From positions 223,270 to 287,269 of the IMG/VR virus record IMGVR_UViG_3300033074_000580: a stretch of DNA of 64,000 bases. One strand, given 5' to 3'. Numbering within the stretch: position 1 is the first letter of the stretch; the number at the start of each line of letters is the position of its first letter. This document shows, in pieces, positions 16,164 to 62,916 of the stretch. The notes under the pieces are model-generated. The model worked only from the letters and a program-made list of their open reading frames with translations. It was not told the DNA's origin and ran no database searches. Origin of the DNA: a virus (taxonomy: Duplodnaviria > Heunggongvirae > Uroviricota > Caudoviricetes). Both the position numbers and the translations under genes were made by a program.

Positions 16164-16192
16164 AATATACCAAAATTAACCGATAATTACAA
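16164..16192 (-). promoter_or_regulatory. Sigma70-like promoter TTGTAA-N17-TATATT upstream of the 380-aa gene
   Basis: 17-bp spacer, 6 nt before the ATG; the -35 box overlaps the end of the upstream gene. Confidence 0.4.
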
Positions 16193-19100
16193 CCCTTCCT
16201 GTTCTCGATGTTGTAAAAGTTATATCAACAACATTCACCGATGTTGTTACAATTGATGATGGCCAGAACATATTATCACTACTATCATAAACGAATACCG
16301 CAACATCTTTACTACCTAAATTATGTGTAACTGATACTGACGATACGTTACTGAAAGTTGTTGAATATTTTGTGGATAATTTTTTCCAACTTGTCCATGT
16401 TCCACTATTTTTACCTCTTACCCAAACTTGACCTGAACGATAATCACCGTAAAATTGATGTTGCCAACTTGAATTATATGCTTGGCCATACAACGCACCG
16501 TCTGATGCATTTCCAGATGGATTACCTGATGAACCATCAATATTTGTTACATAACCAACTACGTTAGCATCTACACTATTGGCATTCAATCCGTTATTTG
16601 AATTTGTATTAACAAAATCAACTCCATCGATTTGATTTGCACTTGTTGCTGTTGATGCATTACCCGATAAAGCACCTGAGAAGGTTGGGGCGGTGATAGT
16701 ACCTGTTGAGGTTATATCTCCGTTATCCATGTCCATAATAACCCTATTAGTACCTCCACCAACAAATCTAAATTCATTACCTGTTCCGTACCATCTTAGT
16801 CCCCATGCATTTGCTGCAGTTGCGTGTGATGGATAATAATCTTCAGAAATACCCCATAAATCAACGTCTAAATCACCTGTTGCTGCGGAAATGAAACCTC
16901 CTGATAAAATAGGTCTATTAGCAATTTCACTAGGGAATGTTTTTTGTCCCGTTATTGTTTCATCACCTGCCTTTGCAACATATAATGCCGCTGATGGTGA
17001 CGTACCTGAACTACCACTAGAACCTGAAGAACCTGACGTTCCACTTGTACCTGAAGTACCATTTATCCCTGATGTTCCTGAGCTACCAGAAGAACCTGAT
17101 GAACCACTTGTTCCTGAACTTCCACTAGACCCTGATGTACCAGATGAACCGCTAGAACCTGAAGTTCCACTTGTTCCTGAAGAACCACTAGACCCCGAAC
17201 TACCTGATGTACCACTAGAACCTGAAGTTCCGCTTGTACCAGACGTACCACTAGAACCTGAACTACCACTTGTTCCACTACTTCCCGAACTACCAGATGT
17301 ACCTGAACTACCATTACTTCCAGAACTACCAGATGTACCCGCAGTTCCACTACTTCCTGAAGAGCCACTAGTTCCCGATGTTCCTGATGAACCTGAACTA
17401 CCTGACGTACCACTGGTTCCTGAAGAGCCCGAGCTACCTGAAGTTCCACTTGTTCCTGAAGAACCTGAACTACCTGATGTACCACTTGTACCGGAACTTC
17501 CACTACTTCCTGAACTACCGGATGTACCAGATGAACCCGAACTACCTGACGTACCACTGGTTCCTGAAGAGCCGGAACTACCTGAAGTACCACTTGTACC
17601 GGAAGTTCCGCTTGTACCCGAAGTTCCACTAGTACCTGATGTTGCTGCCGTATATGAACTACCGTTAATATATAATGAACCCGTTACTGATAAACTACCC
17701 GACACACCAATTGCACCACCACTTTCTGAAATTATCGAATCTCCAATGTGATCACCACCAATTGATTTTGGAATTTTACCGCTGGTTAATGTTTGTTCTT
17801 CACCTAATGAACCCGTATTTCTCGGACCCATTATTAACATCGCACCGTTATAGTTAGAACCACTAGCATTTTGATAAACCCATCTATTATTTAAACTATC
17901 CCACGATAAAGACGCTGTTGCAGTTGAACTACCGCTATCGTATACTTTAATACCTCCAAATCTTTCAGATGGTTCATTTACGTTTACTGATATGTAAGAT
18001 GTTAAAACATTTAATTGTGATGATGTTACATATGTTATTGATGATGAACCCAATACAGTTAAGTCTTGAGTTACCCATAATGAACCTGTTATATATTGAT
18101 TTCCTACTAATTTTAAATTGTTACCATCAAATGTTAAATTTGATTCGACAGTTACATTTGGTGAACTTCCATCTAAAGTAAGAAGTCCGTTATCTTGTGT
18201 TCCTGTCATGGTTACGGTACCTGAAGAACCGCTTGACCCGGATGTTCCTGAAGTTCCAGATGTTCCGCTAGACCCTGAGCTACCACTTGTTCCCGATGAA
18301 CCACTAGAACCTGACGTTCCCGAAGAACCACTAGAACCCGACGTTCCACTTGTTCCAGAAGTTCCACTAGAACCTGAGGTACCACTACTACCAGATGAAC
18401 CACTGGTTCCTGAAGTTCCACTAGAACCGGATGAACCTGACGTTCCACTTGTTCCACTACTTCCTGAACTACCTGATGTGCCACTTGTACCCGAAGAACC
18501 GGATGTACCACTAGACCCTGAACTACCTGATGTTCCTGAAGTACCTGAAGAACCATCACTTCCTGAAGTGCCGCTAGTACCTGCGGTTCCGCTAGACCCT
18601 GAGCTTCCACTCGTACCTGATGTACCTGAACTACCGCTAGAACCTGAAGTACCAGATGTACCTGAACTACCACTAGAACCCGAAGAACCACTTGTTCCTG
18701 AAGAACCGCTTGACCCCGAAGTTCCAGATGTTCCGCTTGTACCTGAAGAACCGCTAGACCCTGATGTACCTGAACTACCACTAGAACCCGATGTGCCCGA
18801 TGAACCCGAACTACCGCTCGTACCTGAAGTTCCACTAGAACCAGATGAACCTGATGTTCCACTACTTCCTGAACTACCAGATGTTCCTGACGTACCACTT
18901 GTTCCGGATGTTGCGGCGTTATATGATGTACCGTTAATAACAACGTCACCCGTCACATAAATTGAACCGGTAACAAACGTATCATCGTTTATCCTTAATC
19001 CAACACCATCATAAATTTGTGCGTTGGTATTTCCGTCTGAAATCTTATTTAATTGTAATCCTGTTACACCACTTGCAGGTATGTTATATAAACCATTACC

Positions 19101-19325
19101 ATCACCTCTAAAACTACCGGTAAATGAACCGGTGTTATATGATGATGTAAAATCGTTAAACGATGTGGTTAATGTGTAGTTAGCAGCATGTGATGCGGAT
19201 ATTGCATTTGATGTCGTACCACTAATTACGGCATTTATAATACCGTCAACCGTTAAATCTCCCGCAATGTGACTATCTCCTGCAACTTCGAGTGAACCCG
19301 ATATTATGGCGTCAAAAATATTCAT
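16176..19325 (-). CDS. Tail-fibre-like protein (1049 aa) with two Gly-(Ser/Thr)-Ser repeat blocks and a pyocin-knob-like C-terminal region
   Basis: (SG[TS])n blocks, QFYGDYRSGQVWVRGKNSGTWTSWKKL knob-type motif and a terminal THNLG module. Confidence 0.75.
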   Translation of the reverse strand: MNIFDAIISGSLEVAGDSHIAGDLTVDGIINAVISGTTSNAISASHAANYTLTTSFNDFTSSYNTGSFTGSFRGDGNGLYNIPASGVTGLQLNKISDGNTNAQIYDGVGLRINDDTFVTGSIYVTGDVVINGTSYNAATSGTSGTSGTSGSSGSSGTSGSSGSSGTSGTSGSSGSSGTSGSSGSSGTSGSSGSSGTSGTSGTSGSSGSSGTSGSSGSSGSSGTSGTSGSSGSSGTSGTSGSSGSSGTAGTSGTSGSDGSSGTSGTSGSSGSSGTSGSSGTSGTSGSSGSSGTSGTSGSSGSSGTSGTSGSSGSSGTSGSSGTSGTSGTSGSSGSSGTSGSSGSSGTSGSSGSSGTSGTSGTSGSSGSSGTVTMTGTQDNGLLTLDGSSPNVTVESNLTFDGNNLKLVGNQYITGSLWVTQDLTVLGSSSITYVTSSQLNVLTSYISVNVNEPSERFGGIKVYDSGSSTATASLSWDSLNNRWVYQNASGSNYNGAMLIMGPRNTGSLGEEQTLTSGKIPKSIGGDHIGDSIISESGGAIGVSGSLSVTGSLYINGSSYTAATSGTSGTSGTSGTSGTSGTSGSSGSSGTSGTSGSSGSSGTSGSSGSSGSSGTSGTSGSSGSSGTSGTSGSSGSSGTSGTSGSSGSSGTSGTSGSSGSSGTAGTSGSSGSNGSSGTSGSSGSSGTSGSSGSSGTSGTSGTSGSSGTSGSSGSSGSSGTSGTSGSSGSSGTSGSSGSSGTSGSSGSSGSSGTSGINGTSGTSGTSGSSGSSGSSGTSPSAALYVAKAGDETITGQKTFPSEIANRPILSGGFISAATGDLDVDLWGISEDYYPSHATAANAWGLRWYGTGNEFRFVGGGTNRVIMDMDNGDITSTGTITAPTFSGALSGNASTATSANQIDGVDFVNTNSNNGLNANSVDANVVGYVTNIDGSSGNPSGNASDGALYGQAYNSSWQHQFYGDYRSGQVWVRGKNSGTWTSWKKLSTKYSTTFSNVSSVSVTHNLGSKDVAVFVYDSSDNMFWPSSIVTTSVNVVDITFTTSRTGRVVIIG
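16998..17639 (-). repeat. Gly-X-Y (G-S/T-S) coding repeat block, about 71 triplets
   Basis: Gly at every third residue, read from the translation. Confidence 0.95.
18216..18908 (-). repeat. Gly-X-Y (G-S/T-S) coding repeat block, about 77 triplets
   Basis: Gly at every third residue; rare Ala/Asp substitutions only at the Y position. Confidence 0.95.
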
Positions 19326-19346: not shown

Positions 19347-19354
19347 ATAAATAC
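19347..19354 (-). promoter_or_regulatory. GTATTTAT motif upstream of the fibre gene (candidate late promoter)
   Basis: The same 8-mer recurs at 33380, 57643 and 62953, each about 18-37 nt upstream of an ATG on the coding strand. Confidence 0.55.
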
Positions 19355-19381: not shown

Positions 19382-21499
19382 TTAGAACAATAACTTATCA
19401 ATCTCTTTTATTACGTCTTGTGAGGTGATATTTTTAGAACATTCAAACTGTCTATCTGTGTTTTTATGTACTGGACACCAATTCCAATCACTCATATCAA
19501 AATCGTAATTATTCCAACAACTATTACAAACATCTTTATTTATTATTCGACTAATACCCTCGAATGGTTCGGTATATACGTCGGTAAAACCAGATATTAA
19601 AATTGTTGGGGTTCCACATGCCCAAGATACCCAACTTAGTCCACTACTAACACCTATAAAAAGTTCCGATTCTTGTAAAATTTTAATAATATCATCCAAT
19701 GGACCTTCGGGTTGTTTGGTGACACCTATTGGAGTTTTATTCCCCATAAAACCATCCTCTTCTTTGGATAATAATCTAACCTCATACCCTTTATCTAACA
19801 AATAATTGGTAATGTCTTGCCATCCGTTTGGATTATTCCAATACTTACATTGTGCTGTTGAATGTATTCCAATACAAACCCTTTTTTTAACATCCTTACC
19901 TAATTTTTTAAGTTTAGGTCTAACTTCAACATAGTCTAAACCTAAAATATCGGAAGCCATTTTAGTTAATGGTTCTTTCTTAGGGTCGGTTGGGTGAGAT
20001 GTAAAATCTATTCCGTTTCTATTTTCTTTATAGAACATTCCCAACCTATACATTCCATATAAGTTATTCACACTAGTACCTGGTTCAACAAATTGTATTT
20101 TAGGATATTGATTTTGGAATAGTTTATTATGGAAAGTGGAACAAACAACCTCACAGTTATGTTTCTTTCTAAATTCCTCAACATATCCCATATATGCGAT
20201 GTTGTCTCCCAATGATTTTGTTTCAAATGAAATAAGAAATTTTTGTTTCTTTGGGTTGAACTTGTATTCTAATTTATAATCATTATCAAGACCTTTTACT
20301 TTAATAATCCACTCAACATAATATTTTATTGAACATTTTGCCCAATGATTACTCTTCATATTTAACTCATATTCAACCTTATCATTTTTTGGGTTAATAA
20401 ACTCAACGTGATAATTTGAATTGGTGTCGTTCAAAATTTCAATAAATGGACCATCAATAAAATTTAAATTAACTTTGGTGTTCTTTTGGTCTTTGTATAC
20501 TGTTTTTTTCTCGACTTTATTTAATCTTTTTATTTCTTCGTTTAACGTTTCGGAAAATACTTTTACTCCTTGATATAAAACCTCAACAACTCCACCTTCT
20601 ATGTATTTCCCCACACTTTCTAAATGATATTGACCCTTTTGAATATTAAAAAATCTACCAACATTGTTATAACGTATTTCAACTAAATAATCTTTATCCG
20701 CTGGTTTACCATCAAAACCTGATATGAAATGAATGTAGGTATCATCACCATCAAAACCAAGATATGTTTGAAATCTTGCACCATTTCTTAAAATTCCGTT
20801 TCTATTCCATGCAGCAAATAAATTCAATTCCTCATTGTTTGGGATGTATTTGCTCACAAATACGTTATTGGTTATTTTTTTAATTGATTGGAACAATTGT
20901 TTTTCTAATTGCCAAGAATCGGGTTTGTTCTTAAAATATTCTTCTTTTGAATTGATTAAATTCACCATTTCAATTGCAACATCCGTCTTAATTGAGAAAA
21001 TGTATGCAGCACAATATGGATTTTCTTGATTTGTGGAACCTCTGTCGTATTCATATATTACAGCATCGTGATGTCTTATATACTCAAGAAACGATTGTCG
21101 ATACTGTGTTGTGTTTGGTAAATTATCATATTCTAAGAAATGAATATATTTTTTACCTAACTGTTTAACTAAATTAAAAGCGTTCTTTATGGTTAACCAA
21201 ATGGCATAATCATGATGAAATTTATTTCTGTTTACAATTTTATAATCATTAGTATCCGTCCACCTATCACTTTGAATTTCATATAATTCAAAATCTTTTT
21301 CCAACAAAATATCGTTATTACCATCGTAGATATAGTAATCAACCATTTTTTGTACATTTGGATTAACAGGATAGTGACCACACAAAATTATTGGACAATT
21401 AAATTCCTTTAAACTTACTATTAGTTCTTTTAAAGTATTTTCTTTTTCAATTGTGTCTAACCAACAATCGATGACAAATACATCTTCGTTAAATTCCAT
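19382..21499 (-). CDS. Aah/TibC-like (autotransporter O-heptosyltransferase family) protein O-glycosyltransferase with an extra N-terminal GT-A-like domain
   Basis: IKYYVEWIIKV beta-domain motif, SLGDNIAYMGYVEEFRKKHNCEVVC, FIGVSSGLSWVSW...ISGFT and the four-Cys iron site VCNSCWN...WCPVHK...QFECSK. Confidence 0.85.
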   Translation of the reverse strand: MEFNEDVFVIDCWLDTIEKENTLKELIVSLKEFNCPIILCGHYPVNPNVQKMVDYYIYDGNNDILLEKDFELYEIQSDRWTDTNDYKIVNRNKFHHDYAIWLTIKNAFNLVKQLGKKYIHFLEYDNLPNTTQYRQSFLEYIRHHDAVIYEYDRGSTNQENPYCAAYIFSIKTDVAIEMVNLINSKEEYFKNKPDSWQLEKQLFQSIKKITNNVFVSKYIPNNEELNLFAAWNRNGILRNGARFQTYLGFDGDDTYIHFISGFDGKPADKDYLVEIRYNNVGRFFNIQKGQYHLESVGKYIEGGVVEVLYQGVKVFSETLNEEIKRLNKVEKKTVYKDQKNTKVNLNFIDGPFIEILNDTNSNYHVEFINPKNDKVEYELNMKSNHWAKCSIKYYVEWIIKVKGLDNDYKLEYKFNPKKQKFLISFETKSLGDNIAYMGYVEEFRKKHNCEVVCSTFHNKLFQNQYPKIQFVEPGTSVNNLYGMYRLGMFYKENRNGIDFTSHPTDPKKEPLTKMASDILGLDYVEVRPKLKKLGKDVKKRVCIGIHSTAQCKYWNNPNGWQDITNYLLDKGYEVRLLSKEEDGFMGNKTPIGVTKQPEGPLDDIIKILQESELFIGVSSGLSWVSWACGTPTILISGFTDVYTEPFEGISRIINKDVCNSCWNNYDFDMSDWNWCPVHKNTDRQFECSKNITSQDVIKEIDKLLF

Positions 21500-22155
21500 T
21501 ATCTTTTTGTTATTATTATAATTCCATTAAGGAAGTTTATAGATTCAATATCAATTCTACACATTGAAACATTATGTGAATTCTCGATTAACCAATCTTC
21601 TCTTCTTGCATGTACGTTTGGTTTATTATAATTCATTAAGCCTCTAAAGTTAACATCGTCAACAAGAGACTTAAAGTTTTCAATACTTGTATCAGGTTTT
21701 AAATAACCTCCTTCATATTCAGGCCAATATGCGGTACCGCAATCCTCCACAACATATATTCCACCAGATTTCACATGGTCAAATAAACATTCAAATGAAA
21801 AATTAACATGTGAATTCATATGCGAACCATCATCGATAATTAAATCAAATGGACCATACATTTTTGAAATGTTTGATAGGAAATTCGCATCGTATTGTGA
21901 ACCTATTTCAACCCTTATGTTTTCTTCTTCGTATTGTTTACAATCGGGGTTAATATCAATACCTAAAATCTTCGAACGATAGAAATAATCTTTCCACGTT
22001 TTTAATGATTTTCCATTTAAAACCCCAATTTCTAATATGTTTAATTCATCATATCTATTAAATGGTAGATATTTTTCATATTTAACACAATAGTTGTGTA
22101 TTTCAGAACTCTTATCTGTTCCGTGTTGTTTTGCAATTCTGTCTAAATTACTCAT
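21499..22155 (-). CDS. Class I SAM methyltransferase (sugar O-methyltransferase-like)
   Basis: LEIGVLNGKSL, GSQYD, FDLIIDDGSH and GGIYVVED. Confidence 0.85.
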   Translation of the reverse strand: MSNLDRIAKQHGTDKSSEIHNYCVKYEKYLPFNRYDELNILEIGVLNGKSLKTWKDYFYRSKILGIDINPDCKQYEEENIRVEIGSQYDANFLSNISKMYGPFDLIIDDGSHMNSHVNFSFECLFDHVKSGGIYVVEDCGTAYWPEYEGGYLKPDTSIENFKSLVDDVNFRGLMNYNKPNVHARREDWLIENSHNVSMCRIDIESINFLNGIIIITKR

Positions 22156-24872
22156 CTTGTAAAGTATATCATTTGTAGATTATCATTCCCACCCATAAAC
22201 ATTAGGTAAGAATTAAATCCGAGTTTATTCATCCTATCAATTAAATCCTGTCTTAAAATTTCATCATAATTAAAATGACTATGGTGATATTCCATAGAGA
22301 TGGTTTTAACTTTCATTAAATTCTCGTTACTAATTCCATTCAATGCATGAATCTCCGCACCTTCAATATCAACTTTAAGAAAATCAATTTTATCAACTAA
22401 TCCAGTCTCAAAAAGATAATTTAACGTATATGTTTGAACTTTATATTTTTTAGCACCTTCTTGTGTATAAAATAAATTAGAACCTCCCAAATGTGTGCTT
22501 TCATGTAATGTCATCTCACCCATTTCGTTTGATGCCGCCGCGTTAAACAAAACAGAACGTGGGTCAGCATTTAATGAAAGTAATTTGAAATAACGTCTAT
22601 CAGGTTCAAAGGATATAACTCTACTTGCACCTTGACTATATGCCCATCTATTAAAGACTCCAATGTTACCCCCCAAATCAACAACCACATCACCTTCGTT
22701 TATTGTTCTTTCTCTATTTTTATAATAATCTCTTAAATTGTAGATTTCATGAAATATGGCTGGAGCCCACCCAAATTTTTCCGCCACTTCCATTGTCGAA
22801 CCCTCATATTCAGTTAATGATTCAAAGTTATCTAATTTATAAACGCCAGTATAAAAACATTTTGATTTATAAAATGAATTATCTCTTTTCATTTTAATAA
22901 ATTCAATCATCTTATCTGATATGTCCGCGTTTTTGTTACCGTGAAAATATATTATGTTTGATTTATCCTGAGGAATAGATTGGTATCCAAATATTCTATC
23001 AAAATTTTGTGGACCATCTTCATTCCAAAACTTATAGAAATGGTGTAGGGTTTCATTTGTGTTACCTAAATCTCCATCATAACCAGACGTGTCGAAATTT
23101 GAAAGTGGTAAATGATTTGTATAATCAAGAGTCCATCTCAATCCGTTATCAATACCTTCATCATTCCATAAAAAATATTTTCCATATTCTTCAGGATTTT
23201 CTTTCATCAAAGTTCTATATTCAGTTAATATCTGATAAAAAAATGATTTTGAACCATCATTGTAAATGTAGAAACAGATGTGCATGTATGGTTGTTTTTT
23301 ATCAACCTTCCATTTTTTTGCCAACTCTTCATTAAATAATTGTGACTTGTCGTCATCATAGATTCCAAAAAATTCTTCTTGGACATGTATATCGGATAAC
23401 GGATATCTTCCTACTTGATTAAAATATTTTTTTACATCATCGATGTTATAATTTACAACAACATCCCCATCAATCCATATGTAATAATCAAATCCTTCAT
23501 TTAGAGATTCAATACATGCATATTGTTTCCAATACCATTTATCGTGTTCTGAAATTTTTGGTGGTGTTATTTTTCTTTTGATTACATTTGGATAATCAAA
23601 TGGTACATCGCAATCAACTCCGTAAACAATTATCTTTTGATTTGAAAACTCTAATAACGATTGTACTAACTTTTCAATCACCGGCATGTAACCAATGTTT
23701 CCCGTTGTAACAAATGCAAATGATTTAATTCTTGATTCTAATATTTTAGATGCATTTTGTGCAATTGTATCCCAATTAAAATTTTTATGTATTTCTTTTG
23801 ACTCTTCTCTCGACTTTATTAAAATTGCAGTATAGTAATTGTAGGACTCCATCATTTTAGATGCTAAGTCTTGGAAATTTGGTTCACAATATTCACCAAC
23901 AACATCTCTATCCCCAATATTTGCTTGTCTCATATGGGATATTGATACCGCAATACCTTTATTTTGTGCAAATTGTAATTGACCACCATATTCGGAATAA
24001 ATTGATGGTGTTCCACAAGCCATGGCCTCAATTAAAGGCAAATTCCAACCCTCACTTCTGGCACATGACACAAACACATCACCTTCTTGTAGATATTTCA
24101 CATATTCTTCCCTACTTGGAAATTCAATATATTTGACGTTTTTATAAAGTAGTTTGTGTTTATTTACTCTTTCTTCTGTTGAGTTCATTCCGTCTGATGC
24201 ATATGGATTTTCAACAGAGGCTATCAACTCAACATCGTCATAATCTTTGAATGTTTCACCAAATGTTCGTATAATTTCCGTTGTTGATTTTCTATAATCC
24301 CATCTACCAAATAATAAAAATCTAAATTTATCTTTCTTTGGGAATTTTTCAATTGGTTTAAATGTTTCAACATCAACACCTTCAGGAACAATACTTATTT
24401 TTTCTTTAGGATATCCTTGTTCAATTAAAGAATCATATTGCCATTGAGTAGGTACCCACACTTCATCGAAATAATGTAATCTTTGGAAGAATTTATCGGG
24501 ATAACGAGTTGATTCCCATACGTTATATGCTATCTTATAACCCTCGTAATTTTCGTAGAAATATTCATTGTCCATTTCAACCAACACAATATGAATATCA
24601 GGTACATAATTACCGTCATAATTGTATAATGGAAAATCGGTGGTTGTATTATCGGTGTTAATCAACGTTTGTTGATATAACATGTTTTTCATTTCTTCGG
24701 TAATGTATGGTTCGTCGTCATGAGCATTTAGTCTATACCCTTTCCATCCACTACCAATTGTTAAATTTCTAACTTTTACCGTATGGTATTTGTTCAATGC
24801 AGTAAAAAAAGACCTTGCATGGTTAGCATATCCCGTGGTCCCAATAAATGATGTGTGTGCAAGTATTTTCAT
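22152..24872 (-). CDS. Three-domain fusion: GT4 glycosyltransferase + GT-A-like domain + FkbM methyltransferase
   Basis: N-terminal GTTGYA...EGWNLPLIEAMACG; central YYIWIDGD; C-terminal VVDLGGNIG...FLKVDIEGAE. Confidence 0.85.
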   Translation of the reverse strand: MKILAHTSFIGTTGYANHARSFFTALNKYHTVKVRNLTIGSGWKGYRLNAHDDEPYITEEMKNMLYQQTLINTDNTTTDFPLYNYDGNYVPDIHIVLVEMDNEYFYENYEGYKIAYNVWESTRYPDKFFQRLHYFDEVWVPTQWQYDSLIEQGYPKEKISIVPEGVDVETFKPIEKFPKKDKFRFLLFGRWDYRKSTTEIIRTFGETFKDYDDVELIASVENPYASDGMNSTEERVNKHKLLYKNVKYIEFPSREEYVKYLQEGDVFVSCARSEGWNLPLIEAMACGTPSIYSEYGGQLQFAQNKGIAVSISHMRQANIGDRDVVGEYCEPNFQDLASKMMESYNYYTAILIKSREESKEIHKNFNWDTIAQNASKILESRIKSFAFVTTGNIGYMPVIEKLVQSLLEFSNQKIIVYGVDCDVPFDYPNVIKRKITPPKISEHDKWYWKQYACIESLNEGFDYYIWIDGDVVVNYNIDDVKKYFNQVGRYPLSDIHVQEEFFGIYDDDKSQLFNEELAKKWKVDKKQPYMHICFYIYNDGSKSFFYQILTEYRTLMKENPEEYGKYFLWNDEGIDNGLRWTLDYTNHLPLSNFDTSGYDGDLGNTNETLHHFYKFWNEDGPQNFDRIFGYQSIPQDKSNIIYFHGNKNADISDKMIEFIKMKRDNSFYKSKCFYTGVYKLDNFESLTEYEGSTMEVAEKFGWAPAIFHEIYNLRDYYKNRERTINEGDVVVDLGGNIGVFNRWAYSQGASRVISFEPDRRYFKLLSLNADPRSVLFNAAASNEMGEMTLHESTHLGGSNLFYTQEGAKKYKVQTYTLNYLFETGLVDKIDFLKVDIEGAEIHALNGISNENLMKVKTISMEYHHSHFNYDEILRQDLIDRMNKLGFNSYLMFMGGNDNLQMIYFTR

Positions 24873-24908: not shown

Positions 24909-25952
24909 CTATATGAGGTTTTTATTTGCAACAATAAACTCGTGGAAATTATGATATACTTGAGGGTCTCCGTGTATTTTAATCACTTCTTTTATAAATT
25001 CAGAATGTTCTGGATGATTCGGGTCCCATATTTTTTCTTTTAAAAATTCTTCCTCTGTGAATGTCCCCCAATTATTTATCTTTACAAACAACACCAAAAG
25101 TTTTTTACCGAATATATCTTTCATTATGTCAACAAACATTCTCATTTCTTTATAGTTCTTTTGTTGGGTTACAAAGGATAACTTTACCAATTTTAAAGAT
25201 TTTATTGTACTTATGAATTTTAAATTTTCAATTAACCTATCCCACTTACCGTTTAATCTAACTTTGGTTTCATATGTTTCTTTTGTTGCAGCATCAATAC
25301 TAATTTCACAGGAACCAACATAATTGTGGACATTTGGCATCGTTTCCCACATTTCTTTGGACCAATTAGATGCGTTGGTGTGGAAATGGATATTTTTTAA
25401 TTTAGGGAATTTTAGTGGGTCAAAATTTCGTAGAAAGTTTCTATATGAAACCGATGCAAAGGGGTCTCCACTAGCACTTAAATATAATTCTTCAACATCA
25501 TTACCAAACACATTTTCAATATCACTAATCGTATTTTTAACCTCTTCGATTTTTTCTTTATCTGCAGTATAAACAGATTTTCTACATGATGGACATTTGT
25601 AATTGCAAGTTCTATCAAAATCGAAATCAATCCTACTAGGACTTTTTTCTGAAAAGAAATTCTCAGGTAACTTTGATTTATGTATGATTGGACCTTTATC
25701 ATCTACTTCATTGTATCTAAGTAGGTGACTCAAATATGGACATTGTTCGGTGTCGCAGAATTTATAAGAGCCATCGGTTACGGATTCTCTGATTTGTTTT
25801 GCAATATCCGAATTCCAAATATCCTCAACCTTAGTATCTACCGGTATGTATTTTAATAACCATTCAGGAACACACAAAGCATGGAAATACTCATGCATTT
25901 CCAATATTTTAAATGGATTTAAACATATATAATTTTTTAAATCTGGTTTCAT
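24909..25952 (-). CDS. Radical SAM enzyme with N-terminal SPASM/twitch-like Cys region (subgroup A)
   Basis: CNYKCPSC, SGDPFAS, IHFHTNA and N-terminal CLNPF...GSYKFC...CP. Confidence 0.9.
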   Translation of the reverse strand: MKPDLKNYICLNPFKILEMHEYFHALCVPEWLLKYIPVDTKVEDIWNSDIAKQIRESVTDGSYKFCDTEQCPYLSHLLRYNEVDDKGPIIHKSKLPENFFSEKSPSRIDFDFDRTCNYKCPSCRKSVYTADKEKIEEVKNTISDIENVFGNDVEELYLSASGDPFASVSYRNFLRNFDPLKFPKLKNIHFHTNASNWSKEMWETMPNVHNYVGSCEISIDAATKETYETKVRLNGKWDRLIENLKFISTIKSLKLVKLSFVTQQKNYKEMRMFVDIMKDIFGKKLLVLFVKINNWGTFTEEEFLKEKIWDPNHPEHSEFIKEVIKIHGDPQVYHNFHEFIVANKNLI

Positions 25953-53410: not shown

Positions 53411-56400
53411 TTACTCTAATTCGTCTAATCTGAATTTAAATTTCTTTCCGTTTCTATTATTGATAATATAAAGATTTTCTTCACCTTCTTGTATAGTCCA
53501 GTTGCCGGATGTTCCATCAATGTCATTTCCTTCAGGTTTATTCATGTTACTTAAGTGTAAGTCATTGGTATAAACGTTAGCCCAACCCATTGATGCGGAG
53601 CCTAAGTTATATGAGTTATTTGAATGTGGTAAAATGTTTCCTCTGAATACCGATGCATTACCTTCCGCCCCTAACCAAACATATGGTGTTCCATTTGCCG
53701 CAACATACATACCCCATCCACTTGCGTTTGTCATGTTAACTGCCGTTGTTGAACCGTTTGTATTAGTATAACCAACACCGTACATATTATTCAATGATGA
53801 TGCGGTTGGAACATATGAACCCCCAATTGTATAAATCGCACCTGTTGATGTTCCTGTTTCGGAACTAGAATAGTTTCCGTTTAAATATGCCGTTGCCGCA
53901 GATGTACGATATATCGGACCTGCTAATGTTAAACTAGAAAATGTTGGACTATTTGACGTTCCTAAATTTTGGTTAATATTATATGTATTTGCAAATGACG
54001 TACCACTTGAACCAGATGTACCAGAAGAACCAGATGTTCCATTAGAACCTGGAGACCCATTAGCTCCTGAAGTACCTGATGAACCTGAACTTCCTGATGT
54101 TCCACTACTTCCTGATGTTCCATTTGAACCAGGTGAACCATTTATCCCCGAAGTACCACTAGTCCCTGAAGAACCTGAACTACCCGAGGAACCAGATGTG
54201 CCACTAGTACCTGATGTACCCGAAGTACCACTTGTTCCTGATGAACCATTAGAACCTGAAGTTCCACTACTTCCACTAGAACCGGACGTTCCACTTGTTC
54301 CCGAAGAACCATTAGAGCCGGATGTTCCACTACTTCCAGACGAACCTGAACTACCTGATGTACCGCTCGTACCTGAACTTCCAGACGAACCTGAAGTTCC
54401 CGAACTTCCACTACTTCCTGAAGTACCACTAGTACCTGAACTACCGCTAGTACCTGAAGAACCTGAACTTCCACTCGTACCTGAACTACCCGATGAACCC
54501 GAGGTTCCACTTGTTCCTGAAGAACCCGCATTACCTGTTCTATTAAACTCAATCACTAATTGTGCTCCGTTAGTTGGTAATGTTCCCGATATATAAGAAA
54601 CAGGTATTTTATAATATCCTGTTGCCACAGTAACCGCACCATTTACTTGAAATTGGTTTACTATTGTGCCTGTGTCTCTACTAACAATTGTAATTATACC
54701 TCTTGATGAAGTTGTTGTTGAATCATCCCAAGTGTCGTACCATGTGGTTCTTGTGCCACCTAATTGGTCAGCGTTATCTATAAAAATTGTTGTTACGGAG
54801 GCAATTGTTACGTTATTATATGCAATTAAACCCGCACCTGGGTCCGCATCAGTTGTGGTTGTTGAGAAGTTATATCTAACTCCTCCCGCAACTCCTGAAC
54901 TACCGGACGAACCACTTGTTCCTGATGAACCGGATGTACCAGAAGAACCCGAAGAACCACTTGTTCCTGAAGAACCAGATGAACCGGATGTACCAGATGT
55001 TCCACTTGTTCCTGAAGAACCAGATGAACCGGATGTACCAGAAGAACCTGAGGAACCTGAGGAACCACTAGTTCCTGAAGAACCTGAGGAACCACTAGTT
55101 CCTGAAGAACCTGAACTTCCACTTGTACCTGATGTACCACTAGTTCCTGATGTTCCTCTTGTACCAGAAGAACCACTTGAACCAGACGTTCCACTCGTAC
55201 CTGAACTACCCGATGAACCCGAGGTTCCACTTGTTCCTGATGTGCCACTTGTTCCTGATGAACCTGCGGTTAATAAATTTGTACCAACCCCTGTAGCTAA
55301 TGTTGAAATGTCCCAATATCCTCCTCTGTTTGTTCCTCCTTGTTCAAATAATCTAACTTTATTTTGAAAAACGTCAAAACTTATCCCACCAACTAATGTC
55401 GTGTTTGTTTGTGCCTTAACCAAATTTAATTGACCACCTTCATCACCGCTTGAGAATGTTGATGTTATTTCACCTGTTACTTTTAACGTGCCCGTAACTT
55501 CTGTATTTGAATTTATTGAAACTAAAGTACCCGTATCTGTGATATTTGAATCGGCGATATGATGTGTACCCGAACCTTTTTGTATTTTATTGTTTGCAGG
55601 ATATGTTGGTGAACCTTTTGTTGAATATTCAGGTCCAAATATGGTAACTGCATAATCAACAGTTGATGAACTATATTCATACGCCCAATCATTTGTTAAA
55701 CTATCAAAATAGAAAGATGAGGTAGTATTTGAACCGGAGTCAAAAACGTTTAATCCACCATATCTAACTGCAGGTGATGATGCATTTACTGATATGAAAT
55801 TATTTTGAACATTTAATTGTGATGCAGTTGCATATGTAATTGAAGAGGAACCTATTACCAATAAGTTATCAGTAATTGTTAATGAACCCGTTATATGTGT
55901 ATTAGAATTAACTCTAAATAAACTTCCGTCGTATGTTAAATTTGATTCTACTGTAACATTAGGTGATGAACCATTTAATGTCAACAAACCATTATCTTGG
56001 GTTCCGGTCATTGTTACGGTACCCGAACTTCCACTACTACCTGACGAACCAGACGTTCCACTAGTTCCTGAAGTACCTCTTGTTCCTGATGAACCAGATG
56101 AACCACTAGTTCCTGAAGAACCGGATGAACCACTAGTTCCAGACGTTCCACTGGTTCCTGATGAACCAGATGAACCACTAGTTCCTGAAGAACCGGATGA
56201 ACCCGACGTACCTGAAGAACCACTAGTTCCTGATGAACCTGAACTTCCACTTGTACCGGAACTTCCACTACTACCTGACGAACCAGACGTTCCACTTGTT
56301 CCTGATGAACCACTAAAACCTGATGTTCCACTTGTTCCGGAAGAACCTCCACTTCCACTTGTACCAGATGAACCTGAAGAACCTGATGTTCCACTTGTTC

Positions 56401-57625
56401 CTGATGAACCGTTTGATCCTGAAGTCCCACTAGTTCCTGAACTACCAGATGAACCACTAGAACCCGAGGTTCCACTACTACCTGAAGAACCGCTTGTTCC
56501 TGAAGAACCGCTTGTTCCTGAAGAACCTGAAGTTCCACTAGTTCCTGATGAACCGGATGTTCCAGAAGTACCCGAACTACCCGATGAACCTGATGTTCCA
56601 CTACTTCCATTAGAACCTGAAGTACCACTAGACCCTGAAGAACCAGAAGTTCCACTCGTACCTGATGTACCACTTGAACCTGAACTACCAGATGTTCCGC
56701 TAGACCCTGATGAACCGGAAGACCCCGATGTACCGGAAGTACCACTTGAACCACTTGAACCTGATGAACCACTAGAACCTGATGTGCCAGAACTACCAGA
56801 TGTACCGCTCGTACCTGAACTTCCAGATGAACCTGAAGTACCACTTGTTCCTGAACTACCAGACGAACCACTAGTTCCTGAAGTGCCGCTTGAACCATTA
56901 CTTCCTGACGAACCTGAAGTTCCGCTAGTCCCTGATGAACCAGATGAACCACTTGTACCAGAACTGCCAGATGTACCACTAGTTCCTGAAGAACCTGATG
57001 TTCCACTTGTTCCTGAGGTTGCCGCGTTATATGATGTTCCGTTAATTACAACATCACCCTGAACTTTTACAGAACCTGTAACAATTTGGTCGGCTGTAAA
57101 TGTATTTGATTGTGCTTTTTGAGCGTAATATGTTTGATTTGTTTGTAATGTATTGATGTCGTTCGATTGTTGAGCTTGTGATGCGGTAATCGAACTATTA
57201 AATGAATCTTGGGATGATGTGAATGAATAAAATTCTGTTGAATTTAATTTACCTGTTCCAACAAGTTCGTTGTTTAAATAGATTGAACCTGATATTTGTA
57301 CTGAACCCGTAAATTGATGTACGTCCGCCAAGGTGTCACCAAATGCACTTGAACCACTAGCATAACTTGTGGTCATGAATGTAACCGATGAACTTACAAT
57401 ATAACTTTCCGCAATTATTGAACCTGTAACAGTTAAATTACCTTTAATTGTGGTATCCGTATTAACTTCAAAACCGTTACCTTGTGATATTGAGGCAGTA
57501 ACACTACCATCTGCTATTTGTGAAAGATTTAATCCCGTTACACCCGTTGCTGGTATATTTGATAAACCACTTGCATCACCAACAAATGAACCCGAAATTA
57601 ACTCTAACGAACCGTATATCTCCAT
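53411..57625 (-). CDS. Tail-fibre-like protein (1404 aa) with three Gly-(Ser/Thr)-Ser repeat blocks
   Basis: (SG[TS])n blocks separated by globular modules; C-terminal NVYTNDLHLSN...WTIQEGEENLYIINNRNGKKFKF motif typical of phage fibre termini. Confidence 0.75.
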   Translation of the reverse strand: MEIYGSLELISGSFVGDASGLSNIPATGVTGLNLSQIADGSVTASISQGNGFEVNTDTTIKGNLTVTGSIIAESYIVSSSVTFMTTSYASGSSAFGDTLADVHQFTGSVQISGSIYLNNELVGTGKLNSTEFYSFTSSQDSFNSSITASQAQQSNDINTLQTNQTYYAQKAQSNTFTADQIVTGSVKVQGDVVINGTSYNAATSGTSGTSGSSGTSGTSGSSGTSGSSGSSGTSGTSGSSGSNGSSGTSGTSGSSGSSGTSGTSGSSGSSGTSGTSGSSGTSGSSGSSGSSGSSGTSGTSGSSGSSGSSGTSGSSGSSGTSGTSGTSGSSGSSGTSGSNGSSGTSGSSGSSGTSGTSGSSGTSGTSGSSGTSGSSGTSGSSGSSGTSGSSGSSGSSGTSGTSGSNGSSGTSGTSGSSGSSGTSGSGGSSGTSGTSGFSGSSGTSGTSGSSGSSGSSGTSGSSGSSGTSGSSGTSGSSGSSGTSGSSGSSGTSGTSGTSGSSGSSGTSGSSGSSGTRGTSGTSGTSGSSGSSGSSGTVTMTGTQDNGLLTLNGSSPNVTVESNLTYDGSLFRVNSNTHITGSLTITDNLLVIGSSSITYATASQLNVQNNFISVNASSPAVRYGGLNVFDSGSNTTSSFYFDSLTNDWAYEYSSSTVDYAVTIFGPEYSTKGSPTYPANNKIQKGSGTHHIADSNITDTGTLVSINSNTEVTGTLKVTGEITSTFSSGDEGGQLNLVKAQTNTTLVGGISFDVFQNKVRLFEQGGTNRGGYWDISTLATGVGTNLLTAGSSGTSGTSGTSGTSGSSGSSGTSGTSGSSGSSGTRGTSGTSGTSGTSGSSGSSGTSGSSGSSGTSGSSGSSGSSGTSGSSGSSGTSGTSGTSGSSGSSGTSGSSGSSGTSGSSGTSGSSGSSGVAGGVRYNFSTTTTDADPGAGLIAYNNVTIASVTTIFIDNADQLGGTRTTWYDTWDDSTTTSSRGIITIVSRDTGTIVNQFQVNGAVTVATGYYKIPVSYISGTLPTNGAQLVIEFNRTGNAGSSGTSGTSGSSGSSGTSGSSGSSGTSGSSGTSGTSGSSGSSGTSGSSGSSGTSGTSGSSGSSGSSGTSGSNGSSGTSGTSGSSGSSGTSGSNGSSGTSGTSGTSGTSGTSGSSGSSGSSGTSGTSGINGSPGSNGTSGSSGTSGSSGSSGTSGANGSPGSNGTSGSSGTSGSSGTSFANTYNINQNLGTSNSPTFSSLTLAGPIYRTSAATAYLNGNYSSSETGTSTGAIYTIGGSYVPTASSLNNMYGVGYTNTNGSTTAVNMTNASGWGMYVAANGTPYVWLGAEGNASVFRGNILPHSNNSYNLGSASMGWANVYTNDLHLSNMNKPEGNDIDGTSGNWTIQEGEENLYIINNRNGKKFKFRLDELE
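53996..54535 (-). repeat. Gly-X-Y coding repeat block, about 60 triplets (includes GIN, GSP, GSN, GAN variants)
   Basis: Gly register preserved throughout. Confidence 0.95.
54893..55267 (-). repeat. Gly-X-Y coding repeat block, about 41 triplets
   Basis: Gly register preserved. Confidence 0.95.
56018..57016 (-). repeat. Gly-X-Y coding repeat block, about 111 triplets (longest in the window)
   Basis: Gly register preserved; variants GSN, GSG, GFS and GTR. Confidence 0.95.
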
Positions 57626-59544: not shown

Positions 59545-62500
59545 TTAAAGTTTTTTTGGTGGAGCTGTTAATGGGTCAACTTCCTGTAACATGAATTTAA
59601 ACACCTTATTTGTTTTATTATTATATAAGAATAAATCTTCTTCTCCTTCAACTATTGTGTAATCACCAATACCATTTGACATTGATAAGTCAGAAGTATA
59701 AACTGTACTCCAACGATTTGATGCACCACCTAAATCTTGGGAACCGTTTGTTCCGGGTATTAAATTACCCGCTCCCGTTATTTCAACGTCAGTCGAACCT
59801 CCTCTTTGAAATAATAATCTCGCAGTTGAATATGCTCTATTTATGTAGGCTATTTCACTACCAGCAATATCATAGGTAATAGCTAAATGACTACTTGTAC
59901 TTGGTCTACCGAATTTAGTTGTTGTTACAAATGTTGAATCATATGTATGTTTCATACCCATATGATATGTGTCATTATGGTCAACTAAAAATTGTCCGTT
60001 AACGGTTGTTGCATATGCTTGTAATGTACCGGCTTGGGTTGTATTACCCGAACCATCAACTTTCCATTGTATTGAACCTCCTCTAGCACCAATTACAAAG
60101 TGTCTAACCTCGGCAGAACCACTATCGGTTAGTCTACCTCTTTCAATGAAAATACCATTCGCAGTATCTGCCGAAGTATTATTTTGATTTACATATATTG
60201 AGGTTCTATTGTATGTACCTGTATTTGAGGTTCCTGTAAATTCAAATGGTGTTGTTGAACTCATCGTTAACGATGCGGAAGTTGAATTTCCTCTACTAGT
60301 TACGGTTTGTAATGTATCCGTTTCCGATGTGACAGCATATGAACCAATATTACCTGAATGTATGACAGGATATTCCGTTCCAGAACTATTAACCCATTTT
60401 AAAGTTCTACCTCTAAATTGATAATCTCCTGTATCGGTTGGCTCTCCCCAAAACACTTTTTTACCACTTTCATAATTATAAACCCCTGAATTGGTTGAAT
60501 CTGCACTAATATGTGGAATTCTCCAATAACCACTACTAACCGATACTTTGTAAGGTGGTGTGGTTATACCTGTATAATCACCGCCAGCATTACCATACAC
60601 CGATGTAAATAATAAAGTTCCTGTCATTGTATCACCAGCTTTCGCTACATACGCAGCCGCTGAAGGTGACGTACCTGAAGAACCGCTAGAACCAGATGTT
60701 CCACTAGAACCCGAATTTCCTGAAGAACCACTAGTACCTGAAGAACCTGAATTACCACTACTTCCTGAAGTACCACTACTTCCAGAAGAACCGGAAGTTC
60801 CAGATGAACCACTAGAACCTGAAGTACCAGATGAACCACTAGAACCCGAAGTACCACTTGTTCCTGAAGAACCACTAGACCCCGAAGTTCCTGAAGTACC
60901 ACCAGTACCTGAACTACCGCTAGTACCTGAAGAACCTGAACTTCCACTCGTACCTGAACTACCACTAGTTCCTGATGTACCACTAGTTCCCGATGTTGCT
61001 GCAGAATAAGACGTACCGTTAATTACAATATCTGAAGTTATTCTTAACGTACCTGTAATATTGGTATCAGAATCAATAGTTACTAATGTACCAGTATCGG
61101 TGATATTACTATCAAGTAAATGATGGTGACCGTGTGCTTTAGTTATTTTATTTTCAGTTAGATATGTTGGGGTTCCTTTTGTGTTAAATTCAGGACCAAA
61201 TAAAGCCACCGCATAATCCACCGTGGATGAACTATATTCATATGCCCAATCGTTTGTTAAACTATCAAAATAAAATGATGCAGTCGTGTTCGACCCAGAG
61301 TCAAAAACGTTTAATCCACCATATCTAACGGCGGGAGATGACGCATTAACGGATATAAAATTGTTCTGTACATTCAAATAAGACGCCGTCGAATAAACAA
61401 TTGAAGATGTACCAAGAACCATTAAATTGTCTGTTATTATTAACGAACCCGTTATTTCTGTATTTGAATTAACTTTAAATGTTGTACCATCGTATGTTAA
61501 GTTATCTTCAACTGTCACATTAGGAGAAGAACCATTTAAAGTTAAAAGACCATTATTTTGTACACCTGTCATTGTTACGGTACCACTACTTCCAGAGGAA
61601 CCGGATGTTCCGCTTGTTCCTGACGTACCTGCAGTACCAGAAGAACCTGAGGTTCCTGATGAACCACTTGAACCGGATGTACCGCTAGTACCTGAAGAAC
61701 CTGATGAACCACTTGTTCCCGAAGATCCACTTGAACCGGACGTACCTGATGTACCACTAGTTCCTGATGAACCCGATGTGCCGCTAGTTCCTGATGAACC
61801 TGAACTACCTGACGTTCCACTACTTCCTGAATTACCAGATGTTCCTGACGTACCACTAGTTCCTGACGTACCAGAAGTTCCAGATGAACCACTAGAACCT
61901 GAAGTACCACTAGTTCCAGATGAACCGTCACTACCAGACGTTCCACTGGTTCCTGAAGAACCGGATATTCCACTAGTCCCTGAAGACCCTGAACTACCCG
62001 AAGTTCCACTTGTTCCGGACGAACCTGAAGTACCACTAGTACCTGAAGTACCTGATGTTGCGGCAGAATATGATGTTCCGTTGATTATTAAATCGCCAGT
62101 TAATCTAACTGAACCAGTAACATCTAAATCATCGCCAACAATAACTTTAGTTCCACCTGAACTTCTAATTTTATTACCATCTTGTAATTGTAATGTTCCT
62201 CTTACATCAATTAAACCGGTTGTTGGGTCTAACAATAGATTACCCCCACCTGATGATTTTAATTGAATGTCGCCGTCAGCGGATTGTAAAGTAATGGTAT
62301 CAGTACCATCTTCTAAAATTTTAAAAGATTGACCATTATCTGTTGTAATTTGTAATTCTTGTGTTGTACTACCAAGAACTTTTGTACCATCAATATATAG
62401 TGATGCTGATGATAAATATAAATCTCTAAATTGATACGTTGGTGTTCCTAAATCAAAAACATTATTGTGAGTAGGAATAAGTGACCCACTAATATATTGG

Positions 62501-62916
62501 TCTCCTTTAAACGTATTAGAACCAGTTGTTGCAAAGGTACTCGAAATTGAATTAAATGATGACGTAAACGAATTAAAATTTGTAGTTAAATTAGTAATTG
62601 ACGAATTTTGATTACCGTCTAATATTACTTGAGATTGGGTATATGAATTAAATGTTGTTTCATCTAATTTACCAGTACCAATTGCACTACCATTCAATGT
62701 AATTGAACCCGTAATGTTTACACTACCTGTGAATTGATGGGTATCATCTGAGGAGTTACCAAAGATTGATGAACCTGATTCATATAGTATTGATGCAGTA
62801 GTAATTGACGCATGAAATTCGTCAACCGTTAGGGTTCCTCTTACACGTAAATCTTGTTCGATTTCCGCAGAGCCGGACACTTTAAGTCCGTTCTTAATTA
62901 TAAATTCGTTTGCCAT
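59545..62916 (-). CDS. Tail-fibre-like protein (1123 aa) with two Gly-(Ser/Thr)-Ser repeat blocks
   Basis: (SG[TS])n blocks; modules shared with the other two fibres; C-terminal RWSTVYTSDL...YTIVEGEEDLFLYNNKTNKVFKF. Confidence 0.75.
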   Translation of the reverse strand: MANEFIIKNGLKVSGSAEIEQDLRVRGTLTVDEFHASITTASILYESGSSIFGNSSDDTHQFTGSVNITGSITLNGSAIGTGKLDETTFNSYTQSQVILDGNQNSSITNLTTNFNSFTSSFNSISSTFATTGSNTFKGDQYISGSLIPTHNNVFDLGTPTYQFRDLYLSSASLYIDGTKVLGSTTQELQITTDNGQSFKILEDGTDTITLQSADGDIQLKSSGGGNLLLDPTTGLIDVRGTLQLQDGNKIRSSGGTKVIVGDDLDVTGSVRLTGDLIINGTSYSAATSGTSGTSGTSGSSGTSGTSGSSGSSGTSGISGSSGTSGTSGSDGSSGTSGTSGSSGSSGTSGTSGTSGTSGTSGNSGSSGTSGSSGSSGTSGTSGSSGTSGTSGTSGSSGSSGTSGSSGSSGTSGTSGSSGSSGTSGSSGTAGTSGTSGTSGSSGSSGTVTMTGVQNNGLLTLNGSSPNVTVEDNLTYDGTTFKVNSNTEITGSLIITDNLMVLGTSSIVYSTASYLNVQNNFISVNASSPAVRYGGLNVFDSGSNTTASFYFDSLTNDWAYEYSSSTVDYAVALFGPEFNTKGTPTYLTENKITKAHGHHHLLDSNITDTGTLVTIDSDTNITGTLRITSDIVINGTSYSAATSGTSGTSGTSGSSGTSGSSGSSGTSGSSGTGGTSGTSGSSGSSGTSGTSGSSGSSGTSGSSGSSGTSGSSGSSGTSGSSGNSGSSGTSGSSGNSGSSGTSGSSGSSGTSPSAAAYVAKAGDTMTGTLLFTSVYGNAGGDYTGITTPPYKVSVSSGYWRIPHISADSTNSGVYNYESGKKVFWGEPTDTGDYQFRGRTLKWVNSSGTEYPVIHSGNIGSYAVTSETDTLQTVTSRGNSTSASLTMSSTTPFEFTGTSNTGTYNRTSIYVNQNNTSADTANGIFIERGRLTDSGSAEVRHFVIGARGGSIQWKVDGSGNTTQAGTLQAYATTVNGQFLVDHNDTYHMGMKHTYDSTFVTTTKFGRPSTSSHLAITYDIAGSEIAYINRAYSTARLLFQRGGSTDVEITGAGNLIPGTNGSQDLGGASNRWSTVYTSDLSMSNGIGDYTIVEGEEDLFLYNNKTNKVFKFMLQEVDPLTAPPKKL
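60667..60993 (-). repeat. Gly-X-Y coding repeat block, about 36 triplets
   Basis: Gly register preserved. Confidence 0.95.
61579..62055 (-). repeat. Gly-X-Y coding repeat block, about 53 triplets
   Basis: Gly register preserved. Confidence 0.95.

Follow-up and report, generated by a model that had tools for sequence, protein, structure and literature searches.

The question raised by this locus is whether a tailed phage coats its own fibres with sugars and, if so, which of its many enzymes would take part. The window analysed here, a whole stretch of 64,000 nucleotides (bases 223,270–287,269 of the single 323,865-bp virus record IMGVR_UViG_3300033074_000580, 32% G+C), encodes three fibre proteins with long stalks of nearly only Gly, Ser and Thr, together with genes for glycosyltransferases (GTs), methyltransferases, radical SAM proteins and oxygenases. 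The record was estimated by CheckV to be 97% complete, and a T4-type major capsid protein was found in the genome, in which Terminase_6C had no match. A megablast search with 24.6 kb against 50,697 phage records returned no match, indicating that the phage has no close cultured relative at the DNA level among them. An earlier note on this DNA had proposed that the 47 kb from 16176 to 62916 form one system of collagen-register fibres embedded in a phage-encoded O-glycosylation and glycan-tailoring cluster. The answer that we favour, with moderate confidence, is narrower: that a four-gene module, encoding a GT4/FkbM protein, a methyltransferase, a GT-A/TibC-type enzyme and a fibre, O-glycosylates the Ser/Thr stalks.

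The repeats were delimited by a regular-expression census of the 323,865-bp genome for uninterrupted Gly-X-Y runs of eight triplets or more; it found exactly seven such blocks, none of them outside the three fibre genes. Fibre 1 (1049 amino acids (aa); 16176..19325, minus strand) carries blocks of 77 triplets (block 1, 18213–18905) and 71 triplets (block 2, 16998–17636); fibre 2 (1404 aa; 53411..57625, minus strand) carries blocks of 111 (56015–57013), 43 (54878–55264) and 60 triplets (53996–54535); and fibre 3 (1123 aa; 59545..62916, minus strand) carries blocks of 53 (61576–62052) and 36 triplets (60667–60990), which makes 451 triplets in sum. The X position is Ser in 225 and Thr in 215 of them (440/451, 97.6%), the other 11 being N, I, F, V, G or A, and the Y position is Ser in 423 of 451 (93.8%), the other 28 being N, A, V, D, G, R or P. 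Among the 902 X and Y residues there are 2 Pro and 4 charged residues, so that the usual stabilisers of collagen, Pro or hydroxyproline (Hyp) and charged X/Y pairs, are nearly lacking. The register of the collagen family is nevertheless kept, with Gly unbroken through seven blocks of 36–111 triplets, and the Pfam Collagen profile (PF01391) matched the fibres at 121–279 bits against a cut-off of 27.2 (E 1e-35 to 1e-85).

All 39 substitutions fall at X or Y and none at Gly, and a single broken triplet never separates two blocks; if changes were spread evenly over the three positions, the chance of this would be about (2/3)^39. Codon use is mixed, as AGY and TCN codons both occur for Ser and all four codons (GGT, GGA, GGG and GGC) for Gly, and the repeat units found by Tandem Repeats Finder are merely 60–85% alike as DNA, suggesting that the regularity is held at the protein level and is no fresh product of slippage. 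These results indicate that selection on the protein keeps the Gly-X-Y pattern, as the earlier note had claimed, and its count of seven blocks and about 450 triplets with an intact Gly register in three fibre genes was confirmed by the translations and the census.

The three fibres share more than the repeat. A junction motif, I-N-G-T/S-S-Y-x-A-A-T-S-G, precedes the blocks in all of them, and a domain of about 185 aa, which we call the trimer domain, follows directly after block 1 (aa 372–555 of fibre 1, 538–718 of fibre 2 and 448–630 of fibre 3; 50–79% identity). Fibre 1 thus runs from an N-terminal domain through block 1, the trimer domain and block 2 to a distal C-terminal domain. The last 70 or so residues are common to fibres 2 and 3, and the distal domains otherwise differ. 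The C-terminus of fibre 2 matched tail fibre families (phrog_892, "tail fiber protein", E 6.6e-12), that of fibre 1 gave weak matches to virion structural and tail fibre PHROGs, and no PHROG matched the shared post-collagen domain or the N-terminal domains. LamG proteins flank the fibre genes. PHROG homology and gene placement give modest support to the view that the fibres are tail-fibre-type virion proteins.

To this we add a structural model of three copies of fibre 1 aa 330–575, which scored 0.85 as a trimer (best control, 0.00), with at least 90% of contacts agreeing between runs and a predicted local distance difference test (pLDDT) value of at least 81. The mark set for this score is passed by 21 of 30 proteins solved as same-chain pairs and by 0 of 23 single-chain proteins, counts that apply only roughly to three copies. 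The confident inter-chain contacts in the modelled collagen parts fell at residues 339, 342, 348, 351 through 369, and then 564, 567 and 570, which are Gly positions, as would be expected of a triple helix with axial Gly.

Two further observations concern the fibres and their immediate neighbours. Homologues of fibres 2 and 3 in two relatives (1546–1633 aa; L333, 1–4638, and L342, 428–5326) keep the N-terminal, middle and C-terminal domains, with about 350 aa of non-collagen sequence in place of the collagen block, suggesting that the collagen stalk is a swappable module. Directly downstream of fibre 1 lie two paralogues (13889–14998 and 15015–16157; 57% identical) that both match phrog_1417, a family of unknown function (E 1e-46); they may serve as accessory proteins of the fibre or in its assembly.

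The enzyme that stands closest to the repeats is a two-headed glycosyltransferase of 705 aa (19382..21499, minus strand), the gene of which ends 56 nucleotides before fibre 1. It comprises a GT-A-fold domain (residues 1–220), a beta-sandwich (243–331) and a TibC/Aah-type (BAHT) GT-B domain with an iron finger (342–702). TIGR04414, the NCBIfam equivalog of Aah/TibC O-heptosyltransferases, matched it at 292.4 bits (cut-off 200; E 4.7e-87), and the TibC structure 4rap (chain residues 39–386) matched it with an E value of 5e-54, so the first identification of an Aah/TibC-like glycosyltransferase in this DNA stands.

We then mapped onto the phage enzyme the residues that the structural study of TibC showed to be required (PMC4358343). 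The catalytic base Asp110 corresponds to D432, the beta-phosphate ligands Thr226 and Lys230 to T548 and K552, and the heptose-contacting Trp305 to W623; the iron-finger cysteines Cys339, Cys342, Cys358 and Cys370 correspond to C658, C661, C675 and C687 and Phe368 to F685, all of them kept. The hydrophobic thumb tip that serves the TibC dodecamer (Phe265 and Val266) is F584-M585 and thus kept in character, and Pro300 of TibC is Ser in the phage enzyme, as in Aah. The required residues are near-invariant over 80 phage homologues, the exceptions being a Lys (L021) and a Ser (L063) in place of Thr226; two truncated matches among the 80 lack some alignment columns, one of them that of Asp110. These correspondences indicate that the 705-aa enzyme is a genuine member of the family, and that its active site is intact.

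One nucleotide contact has changed. Arg286, which contacts the adenine and is the basis of ADP-sugar use by TibC, aligns with I604 here and with Ile, Val or Leu throughout the fibre-linked clade (L004–L027), while it is retained in 54 of 56 loci of the other phage TibC clades (Ala in L029 and Thr in L037). The loss of this Arg points to a changed nucleotide-sugar donor, which may not be an ADP-sugar. Neither gmhA nor hldE (domains I and II) was found in the phage genome, and phage-encoded ADP-heptose synthesis was therefore rejected.

For the N-terminal part (residues 1–340), an AlphaFold model built from 24 homologues (mean pLDDT 83.5) showed the GT-A fold of nucleotide-sugar transferases followed by the beta-sandwich. 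A fold search with this model matched SpsA, alpha-1,3-galactosyltransferase, TarS and a chlorovirus capsid glycosyltransferase (2p6w), and an invariant E-x-D follows a beta-strand. Together with the TibC-type domain, this suggests that the protein carries two glycosyltransferase heads. In all, 306 homologues of the two-headed enzyme were found, and relatives include fused forms of 895–908 aa that combine methyltransferase Pfam domains with PF01075. In a search of 185,579 species genomes, the top bacterial matches were 30–38% identical, and no collagen run was found near any of 70 bacterial TibC loci (0/70); the fibre-linked TibC clade thus appears to be phage-specific.

Whether the enzyme and the repeat belong together was addressed from both sides. 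In the forward direction, we inspected 80 viral loci encoding a TibC relative and found Ser/Thr-rich, Pro-free collagen blocks in 31. Within the window's clade, which has the two-headed form of about 720 aa at 49–81% identity, the next same-strand open reading frame (ORF) in 15 loci starts 48–86 nucleotides downstream and encodes a Ser/Thr-rich, Pro-free collagen-like fibre. The other nine loci of the clade comprise four contigs cut no more than 0.5 kb from the gene, two with one gene between, two with the fibre upstream and one, L021 (a single-domain form), with no such fibre within 5.7 kb. The order GT4/FkbM, methyltransferase, TibC, fibre was found in 16 loci of the clade, three of them cut just short of the fibre, and four more loci keep the order without the methyltransferase being detected as a separate gene; about 20 related phages share the pairing of operon and fibre. 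A second, well separated clade, made up of fusions of 1020–1277 aa, has such fibres 0.4–1.3 kb downstream. In a maximum-likelihood phylogeny built from 35 non-identical rows, from which loci lacking a 5-kb flank on both sides were excluded unless positive, the fibre trait required 3 changes, as against a shuffled mean of 8.7, and none of 500 shuffles gave a value as low.

In the reverse direction, IMG/VR was searched by pattern for DNA that would encode ten Gly-(Ser/Thr-like)-(Ser/Thr-like) triplets, which gave 44 records among the matches listed; 45 control records were taken with a generic Gly-X-Y pattern, with less than 45% Ser/Thr at X and Y and a similar amount of DNA (2.57 versus 2.39 Mb). 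TibC was present in 15 of the 44 Ser/Thr-repeat records, in 10 of these 15 within 7 kb of the repeat, and in 0 of the 45 other-collagen records (Fisher p 6e-6). GT2 genes, which served as a control, showed no bias (10/44 versus 12/45), suggesting that the bias is specific to TibC. An enrichment of GT2 with Ser/Thr collagen was rejected on these counts.

Presence and absence among relatives point in the same direction. Of 22 records that share a cassette of GT7 and LamG genes with the window, three have TibC, GT4/FkbM and the repeat pattern together, and the remaining 19, one of them a 100%-complete genome of 213 kb, have none of these; two of the three positives are near-copies, and the comparison therefore represents two events rather than three. 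L333, a relative that lacks both TibC and GT4/FkbM, encodes a homologous fibre of 1546 aa in which there is no Gly-X-Y run of even four triplets, and this fibre keeps the N-terminal, post-collagen and C-terminal domains at 48–65% identity. The proposed co-occurrence of Ser/Thr fibres with TibC-type genes is thus supported by adjacency, by the reverse test and by the shared presence in the 22 records. That with GT7 genes failed, as only 1 of 25 GT7 cassette loci has Ser/Thr collagen within 10 kb. Across many phages, the enzyme operon and fibres of this kind come and go jointly, and a sugar coat on the fibres is therefore probable.

The other members of the module lie directly upstream of the two-headed enzyme. 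A Methyltransf_24-type methyltransferase of 218 aa (21499..22155, minus strand; PF13578, E 1.4e-7), the stop and start codons of which overlap with both neighbours, is syntenic in 16 TibC loci, and in relatives a methyltransferase is fused ahead of the two-headed glycosyltransferase. The next gene (22152..24872, minus strand; 906 aa) encodes, according to profile matches, a GT4 domain (aa ~114–378) and an FkbM-family methyltransferase (aa 729–886), and 36 of the 80 viral loci have a homologue of it no more than 10 kb from TibC. Farther upstream is a radical SAM protein of 347 aa (24909..25952, minus strand), with twitch-domain and maturase-like radical SAM matches that are all below the cut-offs. 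A homologue from its paralogue group, by best match, lies upstream of GT4/FkbM in 13 relatives, directly adjacent in nine of them, and its membership in the module is uncertain.

In the mechanism that we propose, the fibre genes would yield trimeric tail-fibre-type virion proteins with long collagen-register stalks of nearly only Gly, Ser and Thr, and the module would attach O-linked glycans to the Ser/Thr hydroxyls of the stalks, in the cytoplasm of the infected cell. The TibC-type domain would begin each glycan by placing a first sugar on Ser or Thr; extension would fall to the GT-A and GT4 domains and capping to the two methyltransferases. Since fibres 2 and 3 have the same repeat and junction motif as fibre 1, the module would act on them in trans. 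The GT7-LamG genes, the radical SAM array, the carbamoyltransferase with the APS kinase, the 2-oxoglutarate (2OG) oxygenases, and DegT with the epimerase and GT2 would be separate modules. The sequences establish the repeat, the family of the enzyme and the integrity of its active site, and that enzyme and repeat stay adjacent and co-vary; we infer that the fibres are the acceptors, and likewise the order of the enzymes, the triple-helical form of the stalk and the purpose of the glycan. As to that purpose, we tentatively suggest, as a possibility with less than even support, that dense O-glycosylation of Gly-Ser/Thr-Ser stabilises the triple helix in place of Pro/Hyp and charge pairs, with a donor-changed branch of phage TibC enzymes producing hyperglycosylated, methyl-capped stalks.

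Several points weigh against this reading. The known acceptors of TibC are beta-helix autotransporters and not collagen-like chains, and the sugar donor may not be an ADP-sugar, given the lost Arg286; neither gmhA nor hldE was found in the phage genome. Fibres 2 and 3 lie 32–40 kb from the module. Some of the contigs counted above are related or nearly identical (G094 and G095, for instance), which makes independent events fewer than rows, and the contigs are fragmentary. The trimer model is a prediction and may echo learned collagen geometry. Moreover, 49 of the 80 phage TibC loci have no such repeat nearby, which suggests that the TibC family has other acceptors too, and 29 of the 44 repeat records, including three of the six that are at least 84% complete, lack TibC, from which it follows that the repeat can exist in the absence of this enzyme. 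As far as gene content tells, there is no strict mutual need between the two. The possibility, raised along with the original proposal, that phages with these repeats commonly lack the glycosyltransferase cluster therefore came out half true.

These last two counts are also what lends weight to a view in which the fibres are unglycosylated: the stalks would fold, or stay flexible, by themselves, with the hydroxyls providing hydration and hydrogen-bond networks, and the TibC module would modify some other protein of phage or host and be in the fibre region by mere location. A precedent is found in EPclA and EPclB of Escherichia coli O157:H7 prophages, which are, like the fibres here, of the tail-fibre type with a collagen domain, placed between trimerisation domains; EPclA is negative in periodic acid-Schiff staining, and hence not glycosylated, and is stable up to a melting temperature of 42 °C (PMC3368898). 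EPclA, however, has Pro in about half of its X positions and many charged pairs (PMC3368898), unlike the stalks studied here with their 2 Pro and 4 charged residues in 902. An unmodified stalk would also leave unexplained why fibre and enzyme are immediate same-strand neighbours in two separate clades, why TibC is absent from all 45 other-collagen records while GT2 is unbiased, and why TibC, GT4/FkbM and the repeat share their presence and absence exactly in the 22 relatives. We consider the unglycosylated stalk unlikely. Another view accepts the sugars and questions the helix, taking the glycosylated stalk as an extended mucin-like or polyglycine-II-type structure in which the period of three serves some other packing. 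The near-absence of Pro (2/902) and of charges that favour a triple helix speaks for it, as does general experience: Gly/Ser-rich sequences are classic flexible linkers, and certain phage adhesins and antifreeze proteins contain polyglycine-II bundles made of Gly-X-X repeats. It is harder to reconcile with runs of up to 111 uninterrupted triplets without a turn motif, with a Gly that is never substituted in 451 triplets, with the conserved trimer domain right after block 1 in all three fibres, with the strong Pfam Collagen matches, and with the modelled contacts, which are predicted at Gly positions on both sides of the trimer domain. Such a stalk seems improbable to us.

The broadest alternative is the one first proposed, in which the whole 47-kb stretch is one integrated system for fibre O-glycosylation and glycan tailoring; taken at its widest, it would also embrace the radical SAM enzymes and 2OG oxygenases. 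The genes do share a strand, are packed very closely and lie among the three fibre genes or next to them, and a close relative keeps most of their order (L330 and L005 on one contig). Among relatives, the remaining island genes are swapped around the conserved core. The GT7-LamG cassette (43903–48505, part of a larger cassette at 38779–48505 that comprises a methyltransferase, a GT2-like gene, two GT7 galactosyltransferase-like genes with LamG, and a radical SAM gene) recurs in 25 viral loci (L330–L354) at 32–67% identity, a single one of which has Ser/Thr collagen within 10 kb, and it is present in 19 records without repeats, TibC or GT4/FkbM. Judged from this distribution, the GT7-LamG cassette is independent of the collagen-like fibres and of TibC. 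Since GT2 genes are not enriched with the fibres either, a single 47-kb system is very improbable. The original proposal thus fares differently in its two parts: Ser/Thr hydroxyls as the acceptors are still the best reading, on the strength of adjacency, the reverse test and co-variation within a lineage, and the single system is not upheld. A fitter description of the island is a fibre-linked module of four genes, accompanied by several cassettes that are independent of it.

The proposed glycosylation of the stalks resembles several known systems in part. BclA of the Bacillus anthracis exosporium is a surface filament with a collagen-like region that is poor in classic stabilisers and bears Thr O-glycans made by dedicated neighbouring enzymes. 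The phage fibres also have neighbouring glycosyltransferases, which here co-vary with the repeat; they differ in that BclA has Gly-Pro-Thr triplets, with Pro present, uses other glycosyltransferase families, and is a spore rather than a virion protein. O-glycosylated Thr reportedly stabilises the Pro-poor cuticle collagen of Riftia (Bann 2000, "Sweet is stable"), and Mimivirus carries virus-encoded glycans on its surface fibres; these are an animal and a eukaryotic virus with unrelated enzymes and no BAHT-type transferase. TibC and Aah themselves (TIGR04414; PDB 4rap and 4rb4; PMC4358343) belong to the same family as the phage enzyme, with the catalytic and iron-finger residues kept, and tibC adjoins tibA just as the phage gene adjoins the gene for a long, repetitive, Ser-rich protein. 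In the phage, however, this neighbour is a collagen-register fibre and not a beta-helix autotransporter, the enzyme has a GT-A domain and a beta-sandwich fused in front, and Arg286 is replaced by an aliphatic residue throughout the clade. Among bacteriophages, mycobacteriophage glycosyltransferases are described as decorating the phages' own structural proteins, on the C-terminal tails of capsid and tail-tube subunits (Freeman et al. 2023, PMC10527164, as relayed in PMC12619734); the enzymes, the acceptor architecture and the host phylum differ from those here. No paper pairing TibC-type enzymes with phage collagen-like fibres was found in a literature coverage that was incomplete. As far as the alignments go, what is new in the phage enzyme is a BAHT member with a fused head, a changed nucleotide contact and a novel kind of neighbour.

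If the proposed module acts as suggested, it would represent a second, widespread kind of bacteriophage virion protein glycosylation, after the mycobacteriophage capsid and tail case, and a new class of acceptor for the TibC/Aah family beyond autotransporters. It would also offer a compact natural system, consisting of one fibre fragment and three genes, in which to ask whether sugars alone can hold a proline-free collagen helix, a question relevant to collagen biophysics and to the design of recombinant collagens. The repeat type is common in the IMG/VR viromes according to the pattern scan, and the enzyme clade has hundreds of metagenomic members, so that the biology would be broad and extend beyond one contig. 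For annotation, the locus illustrates that a large "glycan island" should not be taken as a single pathway.

The rest of the island was compared with the enzyme list first drawn up for it. Genes at 234–6590 of the window are on the plus strand; from 6583 onwards all are on the minus strand and very closely spaced. The TibC/Aah-like enzyme, two GT7 genes, GT2, GT4, a TOD1/MUCI70 protein (the former DUF616), DegT, the epimerase, the carbamoyltransferase and the APS kinase were all recovered. Of the seven methyltransferase domains listed, Pfam supports five, and the SGNH proteins reduce to a single weak SGNH/GDSL match below the cut-off (E 1e-3). The span 16176–62916 does not hold the whole list, since TOD1, DegT, the epimerase and one GT2 gene lie at 234–6590. 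GT7 as a partner of the fibres was rejected, as the cassette persists without repeats and TibC. The sole tie of the radical SAM array, carbamoyltransferase, APS kinase, 2OG oxygenases, DegT, epimerase and GT2 to the fibres is that they share the same variable island. At 7059–9013 lie a DUF401-like membrane transporter gene and, after it, a 319-aa gene without a family match, both inside a stretch of about 9.6 kb (6583–16157). Most relatives lack this stretch, so that only 2–4 kb separate their fibre from the convergent GT2 gene.

Six tandem radical SAM genes occupy 36265–43901. In four of the six, Pfam places a SPASM iron-sulfur domain at the N-terminus (aa ~4–78), ahead of the radical SAM core, which is the opposite of the usual order; the SPASM match in 40271–41524 is below the Pfam cut-off (E 0.007). 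Three more radical SAM genes lie at 10683, 24909 and 26984. Beside the collagen-like genes there are four 2OG-Fe(II) oxygenases (11691–12335, 25949–26434, 26415–26984 and 30109–30666), three of them prolyl-hydroxylase-like (PF13640), with 26415–26984 just below the Pfam cut-off. Since the fibres are nearly without proline or lysine, the substrate of these oxygenases cannot be the usual collagen residues.

Finally, a promoter-like word, RGTATTTAT, lies on the minus strand 22 nucleotides upstream of the start of fibre 1 (19347–19355). Further copies on the same strand precede fibre 2 (57643–57651), fibre 3 (62953–62961) and a gene for a Hint-domain protein (33380–33388), each 18–37 nucleotides before the start codon, so that each of the window's four copies sits in an intergenic gap and on the coding strand. 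Their number in the window is at chance level (4 versus 4.1 expected); genome-wide, 10 of 19 copies lie 14–37 nucleotides 5′ of the ATG of a large non-overlapping ORF (280–1404 aa), and on this positional pattern we regard the word as a candidate promoter of late or structural genes. No enrichment was seen for the T4 late promoter TATAAATA (4 copies versus 14 expected), scans for sigma-70 promoters and terminators gave chance levels, and the Bacteroidota −7 word TAnnTTTG was found in one gap only. The gene that shares the word with the fibres (31464–33356) encodes a 630-aa protein with an unannotated N-terminal part of 460 aa and a C-terminal Hint/intein-like domain (aa ~465–629) recognised by overlapping Pfam AXH, Hom_end_hint and Hint matches.

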